From NCBI GenBank assembly GCA_030614005.1, contig JAUWKS010000002.1, positions 120,001 to 152,000 on the forward strand: a stretch of 32,000 nucleotides of DNA. The letters run 5' to 3'. A model generated the notes under the pieces. It did not search any database. It was given only the letters and a program-made list of their open reading frames with translations, and had not been told where the DNA came from. Positions 1,412 to 7,705 of the stretch are shown piece after piece. The first letter of the stretch is position 1; every line of letters starts with the position of its first letter. The translations under genes and the position numbers were made by a program. The stretch comes from Candidatus Heimdallarchaeota archaeon. GTDB lineage: Archaea > Asgardarchaeota > Heimdallarchaeia > JABLTI01.

Positions 1412-1528
1412 AGCAAATAAAAAAACACCTTAAAACATAAGCTTAGAAAAGATTAAAAAGGAAAAAAGAACAGAAAAAAAGTAATTACGCCCTGATAGTG
1501 TAGTACGGCTCATCATCTTCGGCTGTCA

Positions 1529-1567
1529 AAGCCAAGAAATGTGCACTGCAAGCTTTTGGCTGCAGAG
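1529..1567 (+). other. tRNA intron 1 (39 nt, canonical 37/38 position)
   Basis: BHB: central helix CTGT/GCAG, bulges CAA and AGC, inner stem AGCCAA/TTGGCT, outer stem TCGG/CCGA. Confidence 0.9.
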
Positions 1568-1577
1568 CCCGATGGAC

Positions 1578-1610
1578 ATGAATGTGCAAAGAAAAACGCA
1601 TTCACCATTA
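1578..1610 (+). other. tRNA intron 2 (33 nt, non-canonical, variable loop/T-stem junction, about 48/49)
   Basis: BHB: outer CCCG/CGGG, central ATGG/CCAT, bulges ACA and TAA, inner TGAATG/CATTCA. Cleavage after the second nucleotide of each bulge restores GGAC-ACGGG. Confidence 0.88.
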
Positions 1611-1730
1611 ACGGGTTCGAATCCCGTTCGGGGCGCTTTTTCCCCATTTCCCATAATACATAATTATATAATCAAATAGTTATTTTATAAAAAAGTTTTC
1701 TTTGTCAAGATTTTTCTAGATAAAAAATAG

Positions 1731-1766
1731 AACAGATAAAAAAGGTAAAGACCTAATTTATCTGTT
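1731..1766 (-). terminator. Long stem-loop followed by a T tract on the minus strand; likely 3' end of the cas7/cas5-HD transcript or of a guide RNA
   Basis: AACAGATAAA-aa-AGGT-aaag-ACCT-aa-TTTATCTGTT inverted repeat. The minus strand continues CTATTTTTT. Confidence 0.55.
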
Positions 1767-1770
1767 ATCA

Positions 1771-1794
1771 GAATCCCATTCGGAGCGCTGTTTC
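1771..1794. repeat. Degenerate copy (21/24) of the tRNA-Asp 3' end plus trailer (1619-1642); att-like remnant or guide spacer
   Basis: gaatcccAttcggAgcgctGtttc vs gaatcccGttcggGgcgctTtttc. Mismatches at 1778, 1784 and 1790. Confidence 0.85.
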
Positions 1795-1833
1795 TACTTC
1801 TTAACAGTTTCTTATTACTGTCTTAACTACTAG

Positions 1834-2838
1834 CTATGTTAACGCTTTTTTCTTTTCGCTACTCATGCTAGTAATTCGATGCATCTCAGCATCTCTGATA
1901 GTGTTAAGATCTTCATCTTCTTCATCTATCGATGTTGAGACATTTCTTACTAGGTATACTTTTTCTCTGCTAATTTTCAACCATTGATTGTAGTAGCTAG
2001 TTATTGCAAGATTTACCATTAGTAGTAAGTGGTTTTTGAGTGAGTTTCTTGCATATCTAAAAGACACTACTACTCTATCTAATTCTATAGATTTGAGTAT
2101 ATAATCATACAGTTTATTGGTTGATTCTTGTCTTGCCTCTATTTCTTTTGCTAATTTAACAAAGTCTATCTTACCGTTTTCGAAATCATATCGTCCCTTT
2201 GTCAAATAGCTGGTTTTTCTGTTCATGTATGCCGCTACTTGGTCGAAGTATCTTACTATTGGGTGTAAATTATTCCCTTTTATTTTCCTCACATGATGAT
2301 TTTGACATGCTTCTCTTATTTCCTCATCATTGATTTCTACTTCTTGGAAAATCTTACTCATATGCCTCTCTGTATGCACAAAATCATGAAGCATCAGAGC
2401 TCGAAGTAATCTTTGTAGTTTCTTAGGATAATTTGTTCCCAAACCCTTTCGTATTCTGAATTTCTTTCGTTTTGGTTCTGAAGGTATTTTCTTGTATTTT
2501 TCTTCTTTATACTCTAACCACTTTACTTTTCCAAGGCCATCATTCTTTTTACTTCCTAGATATTCCTTCCTAAGATATTGTTTGATTGTTTCTTTTCCTC
2601 GAGTTTCATTACAATCTACTGTTGTTACTCTTACGAATCCTCTATATGCTAGGTATTCATCGGGTATTTTTCGTTCCCCTTTAATCAATTTTCCAACATA
2701 ACTTTTGAGTGGTTTTTCATTTGTTTCTAATTCTCTAACTATTCTTATCCAGACCTTTCCTTTCTTAAGAAGTGGTTTTGAAGCAATTATTGGTGAGAGT
2801 AATTCACCAGTCAGAGTATAGAGTGTTCTTATTTCCAT
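1834..2838 (-). CDS. Cas5-like RAMP domain fused to a circularly permuted (Cas10-type) HD nuclease
   Basis: The N-terminal ~110 aa end in the RAMP G-rich loop YLGSKKNDGLGKV. The C-terminal part has LMLHDFVH, NHH, YFDQVAA and a late SLKNHLL motif, the motif order seen in Cas10 HD domains. Overlaps the cas7 stop by 10 nt. Confidence 0.72.
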   Translation of the reverse strand: MEIRTLYTLTGELLSPIIASKPLLKKGKVWIRIVRELETNEKPLKSYVGKLIKGERKIPDEYLAYRGFVRVTTVDCNETRGKETIKQYLRKEYLGSKKNDGLGKVKWLEYKEEKYKKIPSEPKRKKFRIRKGLGTNYPKKLQRLLRALMLHDFVHTERHMSKIFQEVEINDEEIREACQNHHVRKIKGNNLHPIVRYFDQVAAYMNRKTSYLTKGRYDFENGKIDFVKLAKEIEARQESTNKLYDYILKSIELDRVVVSFRYARNSLKNHLLLMVNLAITSYYNQWLKISREKVYLVRNVSTSIDEEDEDLNTIRDAEMHRITSMSSEKKKALT

Positions 2839-3596
2839 GCTTTCAACACCTCATCCATCTCTTTCCAGAGATTTTGTTCTGATTCTTTTTCGATTACTTT
2901 TCCTTTCTTTACAGTTCTCGTCCTTGTTACTTCTTGCAAATTCACTTCTAGTAGGTCTATTTTCCCAGCACCGTTATTTGCCGATGCACCCCACCGTATT
3001 TCGGGCATGTAAAGAATACTTTTCAAAAGGAATCCTAGTAACTCTTGATCTAGCTCTTTTAGTAGTTCGATCTCCAAGTTAAATTCACCAGCAATGAATC
3101 GTTCTCTAAAATCTTGTGTGCTTCTCTTTGAATCTTTCATTAGAGCATTTCGTATTTCAGTAGATAGATGTACTTTCTGTGCGTCATTAATTTCTTCTTT
3201 GATGTTATCGGATGTTATTATCACAGGATTAAATCTCACTACGGATTGTTTCTTTAAGGACCCCATTAATTTATGTCTAATGCATTCTTCTTCTGGATAG
3301 CATGAACCATTAAGATGATACCCTTCAGGTAGTAATGGTTCTCCTTTCTGTGTTGTCTTTTTATCAGATATGTGACATACTTCTATTTCTCTTTGTTTTG
3401 CCAGTTCCATCATTGCGTGATTCAATACGCCTCTTAATCCTTTTACTAAGTATCTCTTACCCTCTTTTCCACCATTTGGATTATAGACTAATAGCAGATT
3501 TTTCATATTCCCTCTTGCCATCTGACCATTTCCAGGTTTCGCTATGGAGGTTCTAACAGTTATTTTTATTCGCTTAAACGTTCGAGAGACAAACAT
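2829..3596 (-). CDS. cas7: Cas7-family RAMP backbone subunit (Csm3/Csc2/Csf2-like)
   Basis: KGLRGVLNHAM helix, Cys-containing insertion (EVCH...GSC...ECIRHKLMGS), VVRF strand, C-terminal WGASANNGAGKI G-loop. Likely start is ATG 3596 (MFVSR) after a GGTGA SD; the ORF track start at 3608 overlaps that SD. Confidence 0.82.
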   Translation of the reverse strand: MFVSRTFKRIKITVRTSIAKPGNGQMARGNMKNLLLVYNPNGGKEGKRYLVKGLRGVLNHAMMELAKQREIEVCHISDKKTTQKGEPLLPEGYHLNGSCYPEEECIRHKLMGSLKKQSVVRFNPVIITSDNIKEEINDAQKVHLSTEIRNALMKDSKRSTQDFRERFIAGEFNLEIELLKELDQELLGFLLKSILYMPEIRWGASANNGAGKIDLLEVNLQEVTRTRTVKKGKVIEKESEQNLWKEMDEVLKAWK

Positions 3597-3708
3597 AAGT
3601 TTCACCATATTAATGTAATATATATTTAATATATATTATTTATCTATTTAAACGCTTCGCTGAGAATATTTATATTTAAATTTAATTAGTACAATATAGT
3701 GATGTGCT

Positions 3709-3885
3709 TTGGCAGAAAATGATGAAGCGGTGTTAATTTATTTCAAAAGAAAAGTAGGTAAAATTGGTGACAGTTTACATATTACAATACCTAAAGAAAT
3801 CGTAGAGGCTCTAGACATTAAACAGGGAGACACTTTGGGAATTTTTGCAAAGGATTACAAAACAATCGAAGTGAAAAAACAATGA
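3709..3885 (+). CDS. AbrB/MazE/SpoVT-family DNA-binding protein (58 aa, TTG start; not in ORF track)
   Basis: My translation: MAENDEAVLIYFKRKVGKIGDSLHITIPKEIVEALDIKQGDTLGIFAKDYKTIEVKKQ. Has the swapped-hairpin signature (ITIPKEIxxxLxIxxGD). Its stop overlaps the next ATG (ATGA). Confidence 0.85.
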   Translation: MAENDEAVLIYFKRKVGKIGDSLHITIPKEIVEALDIKQGDTLGIFAKDYKTIEVKKQ

Positions 3886-4331
3886 GTTTAACAACAACTG
3901 AATGGATAACAATAGGATTTAGTATAACCAATACACTACTTGCTTTTGCAGTTTTCATATATATATGGTATACAAACAAGACAAAAGGTCCTAGAATATC
4001 TATTGTTGATTATATCTCAAGAAAAATGGATTCTGATGAGATAACTATTAATTTTCGATATGTAAATAGTGGAGATACAAAAACTATTTTGATTTTTACT
4101 GGGTTTATTGAATTTAGAGATCAAGCATTTGAAAGTTCAGTTACAAAAAAAGAAGCAATAAGTCCAGTAAAAGAGATACAACAAAATCATGTACATTTTA
4201 AAAATTCACTTCCGCAAGGGGGGATTGTAATCGATGAGACAATATTACAAATTAGAGGATATTATTTTGATCATAATGGAAAGAAGAAAAAATTAAAACA
4301 AAAACCAATTCAACTAAATGAAATAAAGTAA
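3882..4331 (+). CDS. Hypothetical membrane-anchored protein
   Basis: Single N-terminal TM segment (WITIGFSITNTLLAFAVFIYIWY) followed by a beta-rich soluble part. Coupled to the AbrB gene. Confidence 0.6.
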   Translation: MSLTTTEWITIGFSITNTLLAFAVFIYIWYTNKTKGPRISIVDYISRKMDSDEITINFRYVNSGDTKTILIFTGFIEFRDQAFESSVTKKEAISPVKEIQQNHVHFKNSLPQGGIVIDETILQIRGYYFDHNGKKKKLKQKPIQLNEIK

Positions 4332-4382: not shown

Positions 4383-5957
4383 TTGACAGTACTCAATTGG
4401 CAGAATGATCCAATATACTTTGATGATGTATCTAAAGAAGTCAATCACTGGATAAATGCCAATGAGTTGATGGAAAATAATCGACAAGTGGAGATCTTTC
4501 TTCCAAACACAGAAACACTCAATCTTTTCCCGATCCTAGTACGAAGAGCGGATTTTCTCCGGGTAAACTCTTCCGATCGCATCCTTGCCAGGTTGCCTTT
4601 CATACAGCTTACAGAGAAGGAAAAGGTACTATTCAAAAACCAAGAATTACTCGTATCCGAAAAATTGCGTGATTACTTTTACCAATCTGATAATCGCAAG
4701 ATCCTTGAGTGGCGAGACATCCTTCGGAACTATCTTGAGCGTGGAGCCATTCCTTTACCGTTCTTCCGTTGTTATCCTGATGAGTGGGGGCTCGATTTCC
4801 AAGACCGAATCCTTGAATTCTCTCGAGGGGAAACTTTTGCAATGCCTACTAGGTTAACTACTGAGCTTGCTTATCTTTGTGGCATGGTCAATGGTGATGG
4901 CAATCTCACTAAATATGTTCTCAATATTGTTGATTATTCCATTGAAAACATTCGACAGTTAAAGGAACAGTTCGAACGATTATTCCAACAAACAGGAAGG
5001 ATTCAACTACAAACGGAGAATTGCCCAAAACTCATTATTACTAATCTCTGGGTTGCACGTTTATTTTCCTTTCTTACGGATCAACCAATTGGTGGTAAGA
5101 AGTACAGTAATTTACGTGGACCACTACTCTTTCTAGAGCAACCCTTACGTTCGCACTATTGGTCGGGAGTTATGGATGCGGATGGAAGTTATACTAATAG
5201 AAACATTACATTTACAAGTGCAAGTAAAAATTATACGCAAGATTTTATCTCATTTATGAAATCAATAAGTATTCTAGCAAAACAGTATTCGAGAAATGAT
5301 GGAACGTTTCAAGTATATATTTCAAGAAAATTTCATGATATATACAAGTCACAATTATTATGTTTACACCCTGAAGAGAAATTACAATTTAATAAATTAC
5401 AAAAGGGAATCAGTAAAAACTATGGTGTACGAATCAGAAAAAAATTTGTTGATTTTGATAAAGATAAGATGATAAACGGTTTTTTTGACTTTAGATTCCT
5501 TACACAAGTCCATATTATTGGCTTAGGAGATTTTCTTCGAATCGAAAGAGAAACTAAAACCTTAAAGTCCTTTTCAAAAGAATTAGGAGTGAGTGATAGT
5601 TTTCTCTCAATGCTTGAAAACGAAAGAAGTGCAATACCAATTGAATTATTATTGAAAATCCTTCAAAGAAAAAATAAACAATTAATGCATTTTCTTTTGT
5701 TAAATAAACAACACATTCTCTATAGAAAGGGAAGTTCCAAACCTATTAAATTAAATTTGAAACCTAACAAAGAGCTTCTCTATTTGGCTACAAAAATGAC
5801 TTTCCACAAAGCTTCTATTAGTTTACCTTTAAAAAAGCAAGATTTACAAGATAAAATTACAGACCGTTTTGGAGTTATTATAAAGAAAAATAGAATTGAT
5901 AATAAATTACTTCTCTATTATTTTACTACTTTTTGTAAGCTAAAAAAAATTGATTGA
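4383..5957 (+). CDS. Free-standing double-motif LAGLIDADG endonuclease with unknown N-terminal domain and XRE-type HTH (copy 1)
   Basis: Motifs LAYLCGMVNGDG and YWSGVMDADG, both with the catalytic Asp. HTH LKSFSKELGVSDSFLSMLENERSAIP. No intein splicing residues seen. Confidence 0.85.
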   Translation: MTVLNWQNDPIYFDDVSKEVNHWINANELMENNRQVEIFLPNTETLNLFPILVRRADFLRVNSSDRILARLPFIQLTEKEKVLFKNQELLVSEKLRDYFYQSDNRKILEWRDILRNYLERGAIPLPFFRCYPDEWGLDFQDRILEFSRGETFAMPTRLTTELAYLCGMVNGDGNLTKYVLNIVDYSIENIRQLKEQFERLFQQTGRIQLQTENCPKLIITNLWVARLFSFLTDQPIGGKKYSNLRGPLLFLEQPLRSHYWSGVMDADGSYTNRNITFTSASKNYTQDFISFMKSISILAKQYSRNDGTFQVYISRKFHDIYKSQLLCLHPEEKLQFNKLQKGISKNYGVRIRKKFVDFDKDKMINGFFDFRFLTQVHIIGLGDFLRIERETKTLKSFSKELGVSDSFLSMLENERSAIPIELLLKILQRKNKQLMHFLLLNKQHILYRKGSSKPIKLNLKPNKELLYLATKMTFHKASISLPLKKQDLQDKITDRFGVIIKKNRIDNKLLLYYFTTFCKLKKID

Positions 5958-6033: not shown

Positions 6034-6156
6034 TTAGATATTAACTGTATACAACAACACAATAAAAACAATTCTAGCCATCTGCCCGTTACCAGGTTTC
6101 GCTATTGATGTTCTAGCGGTTATTTTTATTCGCTTAAATGTTCGAGAGACGTTCAT
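6034..6156 (-). pseudogene. cas7: Truncated 5' fragment of a second cas7 (28 homologous codons, then unrelated sequence and stop)
   Basis: MNVSRTFKRIKITARTSIAKPGNGQMAR vs MFVSRTFKRIKITVRTSIAKPGNGQMAR. 6073-6150 matches 3513-3590 at 69/78 nt. GGTGA SD retained (tcacc 6163-6167). Confidence 0.9.
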
Positions 6157-6507: not shown

Positions 6508-7263
6508 TTATCCATCCAATTTCAACAATTCGAGTGTTTCAGCATCCAGGAGGGTTTCTAATTTTTCCAATTCTACTGTTACGTTTTCTCCTACTTCTTG
6601 ATAGTGACAAAGGGTACAATATGCTTTTAGTGGAACATCCTTAATCTTGATATGATATAATCCTTGACGATATTTGTAAGCTTCACCAGAATGCTTTGCT
6701 TCTAAAGTTTCGGATCTGCATAGAGGACATTTCTTTATATTGTATTCTTCTGGTTTTATTGTTCGAATCGATCGTAATTGCTTCTCCACCATATTGATGA
6801 TTTGTTCTTCTTGTTCCTCTACTTCCAAGCTAAATGATGTAGTCTTGCAAGTACTATTACTACATACTTGTGCAGGTTTTTGTTCTAAAATTAACTCATA
6901 GTTAGTACCTTGTATCCACGAGCTCACTGTTCTTTTTATCAATAATCCGTCTTTACACACATGACAGTATATACCCGTTCTTTTATCCACGTAAGATAAC
7001 AATTCAAGGATTGAGTCAAATTTGAGATTATATTTGGCATAATCAAAAATATTAATTTGATAATGAGTAATTGTATTTCTTAGGGTTCGCAAAGCATTTC
7101 TATCTTGTGGGGTTAATGGGGACCCCTCTAATTTTCTTTCATATTTCGTTAGTAATGCGTCTTTTTGTTTTTTTGTAATATATTCTTTTTTAAGAGCATC
7201 TTCTATAATTTCTCTAAATTTCTCCTCTTCTTTGCCTGCGAATATTTGTGTCATTTCTCTCAC
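6508..7263 (-). CDS. Protein with two YgiT/MqsA-type zinc fingers; putative antitoxin or regulator
   Basis: CHVC...KPAQVCSNSTC and CPLC...DVPLKAYCTLC, each resembling YgiT-type CxxC...vPa.vCxxC. Adjacent to a DUF4258 gene. Confidence 0.65.
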   Translation of the reverse strand: MREMTQIFAGKEEEKFREIIEDALKKEYITKKQKDALLTKYERKLEGSPLTPQDRNALRTLRNTITHYQINIFDYAKYNLKFDSILELLSYVDKRTGIYCHVCKDGLLIKRTVSSWIQGTNYELILEQKPAQVCSNSTCKTTSFSLEVEEQEEQIINMVEKQLRSIRTIKPEEYNIKKCPLCRSETLEAKHSGEAYKYRQGLYHIKIKDVPLKAYCTLCHYQEVGENVTVELEKLETLLDAETLELLKLDG

Positions 7264-7390: not shown

Positions 7391-7705
7391 ATGAACAATT
7401 TGAGAGAAAAGGTAAAAGAGTTTGCTATTCGCTTTCAGAGAGGACATGGAGAGCTTCGTTGGAGAGAGCGAAGTATACCACCAGATGAAATTGAGGATAT
7501 TGTTCGACAATGGGATGTTATTGACGACACAAAAGATGGACGGTACTTGTTATGGGGGGAGTTAGATAATAAACGTATAATACATATACCTTGTTTTCTG
7601 GACATGCAAACTAAAATAATATGGGTACTAACAGTTTATTATCCGGATGATGAGAATTTCACAATGGAATCTAATTATAGAGTAAGGAAAACGATAAGCA
7701 AATAG
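7391..7705 (+). CDS. DUF4258-family (RelE-like) putative toxin
   Basis: H-x-x-x-R-x-x-ER-x-I start, GRYLLWG, IHI, and a VLTVYYPD...RVRK ending, matching the DUF4258 pattern. Confidence 0.75.
   Translation: MNNLREKVKEFAIRFQRGHGELRWRERSIPPDEIEDIVRQWDVIDDTKDGRYLLWGELDNKRIIHIPCFLDMQTKIIWVLTVYYPDDENFTMESNYRVRKTISK

Follow-up and report, generated by a model that had tools for sequence, protein, structure and literature searches.

Array-less derivatives of CRISPR effectors that are built on RAMP proteins, the haloarchaeal RAMP (HRAMP) and Asgard RAMP (ARAMP) systems, were reportedly described by Makarova et al. in 2019 and 2020. Reviews portray both as Cas5/Cas7 systems that derive from type III, lack an array and have HNH or PD-(D/E)xK nucleases (PMC8730458, PMC12669027); a distinct Cas1, together with an HNH or PD-(D/E)xK nuclease, is ascribed to “most” ARAMPs (PMC8730458) or said to be found “most often” (PMC12669027). 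Types IV-C and I-D are also reduced class 1 effectors and have an HD nuclease on a subunit of the effector complex, not on Cas3 (PMC8730458, PMC13676074). A locus related to these systems is described here from 32,000 nucleotides (nt) of DNA of a Candidatus Heimdallarchaeota archaeon (assembly GCA_030614005.1, contig JAUWKS010000002.1, positions 120,001 to 152,000); this whole stretch is called the window. The locus comprises a cas7-like gene and an overlapping cas5-HD fusion gene, and the G+C content of the surrounding DNA is about 33%. With a probability of about 0.55, it represents an array-less cassette, confined to Asgard archaea and descended from a type III effector, most likely of the ARAMP class, whose proteins assemble on an RNA encoded by the cassette itself.

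Like ARAMP and HRAMP, the cassette has diverged Cas5- and Cas7-like proteins that are nearer to those of type III, is without an array and is associated with a nuclease; the Asgard host is shared with ARAMP. Judged by host, Cas5/Cas7 core and array-lessness, as the reviews describe ARAMP, it most likely belongs to that class, and a kinship to HRAMP and ARAMP, suggested in an initial annotation of this DNA, is plausible. The nuclease differs. HNH and PD-(D/E)xK enzymes are the usual ones in the reviews, whereas a Cas10-type HD domain fused to a Cas5-like protein is predicted here. A dedicated RNA, an AbrB partner and insertion upstream of housekeeping genes are unmentioned for ARAMP in PMC8730458 and PMC12669027. 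The array-less Cas5/Cas7 class is already catalogued; new leads come from the RNA element and the insertion behavior.

With the type III-A Csm complex the cassette shares a predicted Cas7 fold with a Csm3-like Cys/His cluster, a likeness to a RAMP of Csm4 size, and the fold and motif order of the Cas10 HD domain. In contrast to Csm it has no palm/GGDD cyclase, Csm2/Cas11, Csm5, Cas6, CRISPR RNA (crRNA) array or cyclic oligoadenylate signaling, the catalytic Asp of Cas7 appears not to be conserved, and the HD domain is fused to a small RAMP. Type IV-C (Cas10-like protein with HD) and type I-D (Cas10d with HD) resemble it in placing HD on an effector subunit. However they keep a large subunit, CRISPR arrays and usually also Cas11, while the HD carrier of the array-less cassette is a RAMP domain of 120 amino acids (aa). 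Related loci of Borrarchaeota add a superfamily 2 (SF2; DEAD/Helicase_C) helicase of 1330 aa, encoded directly upstream of cas7 in 7 loci (e.g., L043:4588-8580), much as type I-D adds Cas3′, but this helicase is nearer to the BrxH, SngC and HamB profiles than to Cas3. The SF2 domains leave the C-terminal 950 aa of the Borrarchaeal protein uncovered.

The cas7-like gene encodes a protein of 259 aa (P0002), with an internal Met as an alternative start at position 3596, and the cas5-HD gene, which lies downstream of it with an overlap of 10 nt, encodes 334 aa (P0001). Named homologues come nearly all from metagenome-assembled genomes of Heimdallarchaeota and Borrarchaeota and are annotated only as “hypothetical”. 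P0002 matches Pfam RAMPs PF03787 (E 2e-7, 32.1 bits, cut-off 22.1) and also the PADLOC Csm3 models. Its AlphaFold2 (AF2) model, made with 31 homologues, has a predicted local distance difference test score (pLDDT) of 81.7 and a predicted template modeling score of 0.81. A Foldseek search of the PDB with this model gave 158 matches at E≤1e-3 (best E 6e-8), and the best 50 are all Cas7 subunits, drawn from types VII, IV-A3, III-A Csm, I-A, I-B, I-C and I-D. By its predicted fold P0002 is a Cas7-type RAMP. The initial annotation had called it Cas7 and had asked for a check of the RAMP fold; the check was run, the fold was predicted, and the Pfam and Foldseek results both uphold the call.

Residues C78, H98, C103 and C109 are invariant in the alignment of Cas7-like proteins. 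A Cys/His cluster of this kind binds zinc in some Csm3 proteins. The catalytic Asp of Csm3 sits in the loop after strand 1; no conserved Asp or Glu is present in this loop of the Cas7-like proteins (residues 24-45, 31-sequence alignment), and it is modeled with a pLDDT below 50 in P0002. The Asp needed for RNase activity thus appears to be missing, judging from the alignment, in agreement with the earlier remark that none was obvious.

No Pfam match was obtained for P0001. The AF2 model (47 homologues, pLDDT 85.4) consists of a beta-rich domain at residues 1-120, a helical domain at 138-300 and a disordered tail at 300-334. The helical domain displays HD motifs in the order H151-D152, H181-H182, D199 and S266-L-K-N-H270 (SLxNH). 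In Cas10 the HD domain is permuted, with the HD motif first and the motif I histidine last. H151, D152, H159, H181, H182, D199 and H270 are invariant in the 47 homologues. The model was compared exhaustively by VIA with 48,161 PDB representative chains, of which 50 matches were listed (Z≥4.9). The best is 6ifk_A (Z 8.3, root-mean-square deviation 3.7 Å, 146 aligned residues, 22% identity; model residues 138-301 against 2-233 of the chain) and the second is 6mua_A (Z 8.0, 15% identity; 138-299 against 1-226). In each chain the matched region is the HD domain at the N-terminus of Cas10/Csm1. Other HD proteins are absent from the 50 listed, but this says little, as matches to the N-terminal domain fill most of that list. 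Pfam HD PF01966 matches 16 of the 47 family members weakly (best E 0.0018), P0001 itself not being one of them; PDB sequence searches, run both with a profile of the family and with the isolated HD domain, gave no Cas10 or HD relatives, and fold searches of AlphaFold clusters and Swiss-Prot were uninformative for this domain. For a helical domain a Z of about 8 is no more than moderate, and a sequence-level link to Cas10 is lacking; the assignment therefore rests on fold and motif order. On the model, the helical part of P0001 is a permuted HD domain of Cas10 type. The permuted order and the intact ligands had both been noted in the initial annotation. P0001 is not a full Cas10, as it ends after the HD domain and thus lacks the two palm domains, GGDD and D4.

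The N-terminal domain has its best VIA match in 9g9a_G (Z 7.7), a chain of 302 aa from an Enterococcus Csm complex that, judging from its length, is probably Csm4. Further matches are to RAMP chains of type IV, Cmr, I-A, I-D and Cas6 (Cas7, Cas6 and Cmr at Z 5-7). Foldseek likewise finds RAMP chains, and among Swiss-Prot models Csm3 and aCascade Cas5 are matched with similar weakness. A G-rich loop contains G95, G101, G103 and W107. As modeled, the domain is clearly a RAMP. That it is Cas5 rather than another RAMP is likely, being favored by the order of the genes and by its fusion to the HD domain of Cas10, which is normally contacted by Csm4. Cas5 proteins of the Csm4/Cmr3/Csf3 class cap the 5′ handle of the crRNA and touch the large subunit, and Csm4 is the direct partner of Cas10 in Csm complexes. 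Of the earlier description as a Cas5-like RAMP fused to a Cas10-type HD nuclease, the RAMP/RRM domain and the HD domain are thus retained, and the Cas5 identity only as likely.

Several results bear on whether the two proteins act together. The pair is kept in 35 of 46 loci, usually with overlapping genes. In addition, a metagenomic protein of 536 aa (P0114) has a Cas7-like half with 32% identity to P0002 (E 1e-23) joined to a Cas5-HD half, and is either a natural Cas7-Cas5-HD fusion or a pair of open reading frames (ORFs) merged by an indel. A complex prediction for P0002 and P0001 supports the pairing weakly. The interface score ipSAE is 0.58, against 0.29 for the best control, and passes at or below 0.60 are more often wrong than right; the mark is reached by 51 of 78 solved pairs and by 2 of 108 mismatched pairs. 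The runs agree in at least 60% of contacts, with a partner pLDDT of at least 57. This pass may also reflect likeness to solved complexes of Csm3-Csm4 type.

No CRISPR array is present in the window by tandem-repeat and repeat searches, and a k-mer scan found none in the genome (3.62 Mb in 126 contigs, about 90% complete). Profiles of Cas1, Cas2, Cas6_C and Csm1 had no match in the genome (Cas8, Cas11 and Cas3 profiles were not searched individually), and all RAMP profile matches fall within the cas7-like genes of the family itself. The locus therefore does not qualify as a type III CRISPR-Cas system, which would have an array, Cas6-processed crRNA and a Cas10 with palms. The array-less status given in the initial annotation agrees with these searches, and a complete type I or III locus elsewhere, named there as a possible refutation, was not found by them.

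A conserved RNA-like element accompanies the genes. In Heimdall loci about 140 nt are conserved across the last codons of cas5-HD and the sequence past its stop, with a median nt identity of 74% compared with 64% for the HD coding region, and in 43 of 45 pairs the element is the more conserved of the two. It is kept even in copies whose frame closes 100-150 nt earlier, so that the constraint does not act on the protein. In its helices 92.8% of the alignment cells are paired, against 31-44% in slid controls, and there are 7 compensated pairs against 0-3; the many G-U pairs point to the sense strand. A covariance model (CM) of this element, R2, finds eight copies in the genome. Five are intact and all of these are at 3′ ends of cas5-HD genes. 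Two are orphans with cas5-HD remnants, one (97 bits) upstream of the S19e gene on contig C94, in the region 1813-2390, and one in the window. The copy at the locus itself overlaps codons for the disordered tail of cas5-HD and extends 46 nt past the stop. The orphan element region in the window (20332-20520, minus strand) adjoins a TnpB-like gene (20933-22573, minus strand) and is directly upstream of an ORF of 159 aa (19805-20284), for which no Pfam match was found.

Borrarchaeal loci have a different-looking element of about 125 nt, with two to three copies per locus that flank cas5-HD: the first separates cas7 from cas5-HD, the second follows cas5-HD, and some loci have a third. It is found in loci L033-L048 and L055 (e.g., L038:9648-9798, 10757-10907 and 11257-11407), contains a 10-bp hairpin with abundant compensatory changes, and has 96.4% paired cells (41-50% in slid controls) and 12 compensated pairs. 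The copies after cas7 and those after cas5-HD form two distinct subtypes. Rfam has no match in the window and none for the Borrarchaeal element. A model of the latter, R1, found nothing in the Heimdall loci or in the genome studied here; only the reverse search gave a match, R2 finding one Borrarchaeal copy at the expected place, weakly (E 0.017). The two consensus sequences also have short motifs in common, in the same order. On account of the weak R2 match and the shared motif order, the Heimdall and Borrarchaeal elements are probably homologous. From these sequence patterns the cassette RNA is the best candidate for a partner of the RAMP proteins.

A gene divergent from cas7 completes the unit. 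Its product of 58 aa belongs to the AbrB/MazE/SpoVT family (Pfam MazE_antitoxin PF04014, 41.6 bits, cut-off 24.7), and each of the 20 Heimdall loci in which this was examined has a homologue of 53-62 aa upstream of cas7 in divergent orientation. It is probably the repressor of the cassette.

Taken together, the cassette would consist of a cas7-like gene that overlaps a cas5-HD gene without palm domains, a 3′ structured RNA and, in divergent orientation, a gene for a repressor of AbrB/MazE type. Cas7-like subunits and a Cas5-HD cap would assemble on the cassette’s own RNA in place of a crRNA. The HD domain would be the sole nuclease, because the RNase Asp of the Cas7-like protein appears to be missing, and would cut single-stranded DNA or RNA after the complex meets its target or a signal, and the AbrB-type protein would hold the operon repressed. 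The role is most likely conflict-related, either defence or the selfish upkeep of a cassette that lodges upstream of genes, often housekeeping ones. In the initial annotation the locus was taken for a minimal type III/I-D-derived ribonucleoprotein of two coupled genes whose guide source was left open. The folds, the absence of an array and the overlapping gene pair remain from that account; the limits of the unit do not, since it also includes the conserved divergent gene and the 3′ RNA element, and neither does the adjacent anti-tRNA guide discussed below. More tentatively, and at odds below even, it may be proposed that no Asgard array-less RAMP cassette is devoid of RNA, each coding for a structured one (some 140 nt long in Heimdall loci; in Borrarchaeota some 125 nt long and present 2-3 times per locus) that takes the place of a crRNA and loads Cas7/Cas5-HD as a hard-wired class 1 ribonucleoprotein nuclease, possibly that of a cassette inserting into the leaders of housekeeping genes.

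Several points weigh against the interpretation of the locus as an ARAMP-class cassette acting on its own RNA. The HD domain is without a link to Cas10 at the sequence level, the N-terminal domain is not confidently distinguishable from other RAMPs, and membership in ARAMP is only likely. The element at the locus itself keeps helix 1 and the 3′ end, but the central 42 positions of the model, with the central helices, are replaced by 15 nt, which accounts for its weak score of 36 bits, and this copy may be impaired. The element is conserved rather than variable and is ill suited to be a programmable guide. It could instead act as DNA or as a cis-regulatory segment of mRNA, and its binding by the proteins is putative.

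The family behaves as a cassette that is gained and lost and not as a core function. The genome contains seven full copies of the gene pair, four on the contig of the window and three elsewhere, with 34-62% aa identity, plus remnants. In three of the copies (A, B and D, at 63, 97 and 156 kb of contig C9) a zinc ribbon, CPxC...CxxC, is inserted between the RAMP domain and the HD domain, and the Cas7-like protein has an insert of 60 aa. Members were found in 35 of 300 Asgard genomes, mostly those of three families; a single genome can have seven or more copies, and fragments are numerous. A search of 1.84 billion representative proteins gave 137 matches, none longer than 536 aa. Past the element, most Heimdall loci have a hairpin that differs from locus to locus, then a ribosome-binding site and the start of a gene on the same strand. 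The downstream genes include those for EF-2 (six genomes), S19e, ABCE1, an Rpo7-like protein and Snf7, tRNA genes and gltX, some of these identities coming only from reading the translated starts, and the clades of cas5-HD track the insertion site. At the S19e site a decayed cassette is present in three genomes of one genus, and the site is empty in eight genomes of the genus or family, where an ordinary, conserved promoter-leader motif is found. In one occupied genome (G300) this motif lies 1.95 kb upstream of the S19e start codon, with the insert in between.

These patterns bear on a reading in which the cassette is a selfish element that homes into the 5′ leaders of conserved genes, transcripts running from the element into its flank guiding the complex to the empty allele; a break by the HD domain would then trigger copying, aided by the Borrarchaeal SF2 helicase or by nearby LAGLIDADG or Cas1-like genes. 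The siting of most Heimdall copies immediately ahead of a further gene, in many cases a housekeeping one, the S19e site with its displaced promoter-leader, the patchy spread with many copies and C-terminal remnants, the site-specific clades, a LAGLIDADG-helix-turn-helix (HTH) gene divergently upstream in 17 loci, and the flank of the present locus, which is antisense to tRNA-Asp with mismatches at 6 and 12, are all in its favor. CRISPR-associated transposons (CAST; I-F3 and V-K) with homing guides, which are class 1 nuclease-poor modules beside conserved genes or tRNAs, offer an analogy to this reading only; unlike CAST, the cassette has no Tn7-like genes or array, has a nuclease, and has a guide that is only putative. 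However the low identity of the paralogues (35-60%) indicates no recent spread within the genome, and the site-specific clades would also fit old vertical inheritance with losses. Moreover the copies in Borrarchaeota do not precede a gene on their own strand, most loci have a flank in sense orientation to the gene that follows, all three occupied S19e sites hold decayed cassettes, and no terminal repeats were identified. Homing is thus considered unlikely. A slightly lower probability is given to the element being mainly the 5′ leader of the downstream gene, which the RAMP-HD complex would bind or cut to tune or shut off expression, for example as a dormancy switch. Most Heimdall elements do end a few tens of nt before the next start codon, ahead of the hairpin and ribosome-binding site, and orphan elements persist before S19e and the 159-aa gene despite decayed cas genes. 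But the Borrarchaeal elements lie to either side of cas5-HD itself, with genes of the opposite strand after them, the next gene in the window and in a genome of the same genus (G234) is a convergent tRNA gene, and the empty S19e sites work with an ordinary promoter.

A toxin-antitoxin-like addiction module, in which the RAMP-HD nuclease would be a toxin checked by the AbrB/MazE-type protein without RNA guidance, would account for the conserved divergent gene of the MazE/AbrB family and for cassettes that are multi-copy, patchy and often decayed. It is nevertheless improbable, as the AbrB gene is divergent and not co-transcribed, and a Cas7 backbone and a conserved structured RNA would be pointless in a plain protein toxin-antitoxin pair. 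The guide might also be sought next to the element. The 19-nt antisense copy of the tRNA-Asp 3′ end (Table 1), whose two mismatches are at 6 and 12 from the element end, could form with the preceding ...GTAGAAAC a solo repeat-spacer unit, a dedicated guide of this copy, as was implied by the earlier suggestion that the adjacent element may supply one. The tRNA-Asp(GTC)-like gene itself is at 1489-1636 (plus strand) and contains a 59-nt intron (ARAGORN with the intron option; the default mode misses it). A match of this length with two mismatches is expected 0 times by chance, both mismatches are at multiples of 6 in only 3 of 171 possible placements, and a terminator-like hairpin comes next. 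Against this, the orthologous locus of G234 is without the fragment, only some 20 nt separating the end of the cassette there from the actual tRNA gene, and the flank matches nearby DNA in none of 18 other loci. The ...TAGAAAC end does not set this copy apart as a repeat tag would, because it recurs, whole or in part, in several others, where it is the spacer between a motif like a ribosome-binding site and the next start codon. Integration at a tRNA gene also usually leaves a duplicated tRNA 3′ end as its scar. Given its absence from the sister genome at the orthologous locus, the fragment probably arose when some 150 bp were duplicated locally at the tRNA 3′ end, and its use as a guide is very doubtful. 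Finally, canonical crRNAs might be supplied in trans from a CRISPR-Cas locus elsewhere in the genome, whose completeness is about 90%; arrays are also frequently lost in assembly. With no array, Cas1, Cas2, Cas6 or Csm1 found in the 3.62 Mb, and with a multi-copy family that has an RNA element of its own, this has very little probability.

Table 1. Features of the array-less RAMP cassette and related sequences, in positions of the window.
Feature	Position	Strand	Evidence or remark
cas7-like gene	2829..3608	-	Pfam RAMPs, PADLOC Csm3, AF2 and Foldseek
cas5-like RAMP/RRM domain, P0001 residues 1-120 (gene 1834..2838)	2479..2838	-	AF2 pLDDT ~90; VIA and Foldseek RAMP chains
Cas10-type permuted HD nuclease domain (predicted), P0001 residues 138-300	1939..2427	-	VIA ranks 1-2 are Csm1 HD; invariant ligands
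Cassette RNA element, partly deleted copy	1788..1899	-	CM R2 36 bits, local E 2e-8
AbrB/MazE-type gene, 58 aa, probable cassette repressor	3709..3885	+	Pfam MazE_antitoxin E 1.2e-10
19-nt antisense copy of tRNA-Asp 3′ end, 2 mismatches	1771..1789	-	directly after RNA element
16-bp hairpin then T tract, terminator-like	1731..1766	-	inverted repeat I21 and sequence reading
Orphan second RNA element, with cas5-HD C-terminal remnant upstream	20332..20471	-	CM R2 79 bits, E 1.5e-14; tblastn
cas7-like N-terminus fragment	6049..6156	-	78% aa identity to P0002 residues 5-42

Other genes are found near the cassette. An ORF of 149 aa (3882-4331, plus strand) with an N-terminal transmembrane-like segment has a start that overlaps the stop of the AbrB/MazE-type gene (ATGA), and the two are a possible pair. 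In the 17 loci mentioned above the LAGLIDADG-HTH gene, which encodes about 530 aa, is located beyond the AbrB/MazE-type gene. The window has two such genes (4383-5957 and 7789-9360), parts of whose DNA are 73-78% identical. Between them are a gene for a protein of 251 aa with zinc fingers of YgiT/YokU type (6508-7263, minus strand) and, adjoining it, one for a DUF4258 protein (7391-7705, plus strand), a pair with a toxin-antitoxin-like look. A PDDEXK_1 gene at 13438-14196, next to a gene for a 674-aa protein (10702-12726, plus strand), is about 10 kb from the cassette. This may parallel the nuclease association of ARAMP; however the four-gene block that includes both is within 10 kb of only 6 of 44 loci. 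The 674-aa protein has an N-terminal winged helix and zinc ribbons in Pfam and PDB profile searches, and no Cas1 signal was detected in it at the sequence level by Pfam, PDB profile or Atlas searches.

HRAMP and ARAMP have been catalogued since 2019-2020, and it is on the question of their RNA use and role that this family bears. It provides a very small test case, with about 600 aa of protein, one repressor, one candidate RNA and a nuclease that can be recognized as an HD domain of Cas10 type, and a single genome offers seven natural variants of it. Should the RAMP proteins have the cassette RNA as their partner, a CRISPR effector would have been rewired from programmable guides to a fixed RNA, and a compact ribonucleoprotein would be available for biochemical study. 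The siting of the cassettes upstream of genes that are often housekeeping genes, together with the polymorphism at S19e, bears on how such derivatives persist in Asgard genomes.

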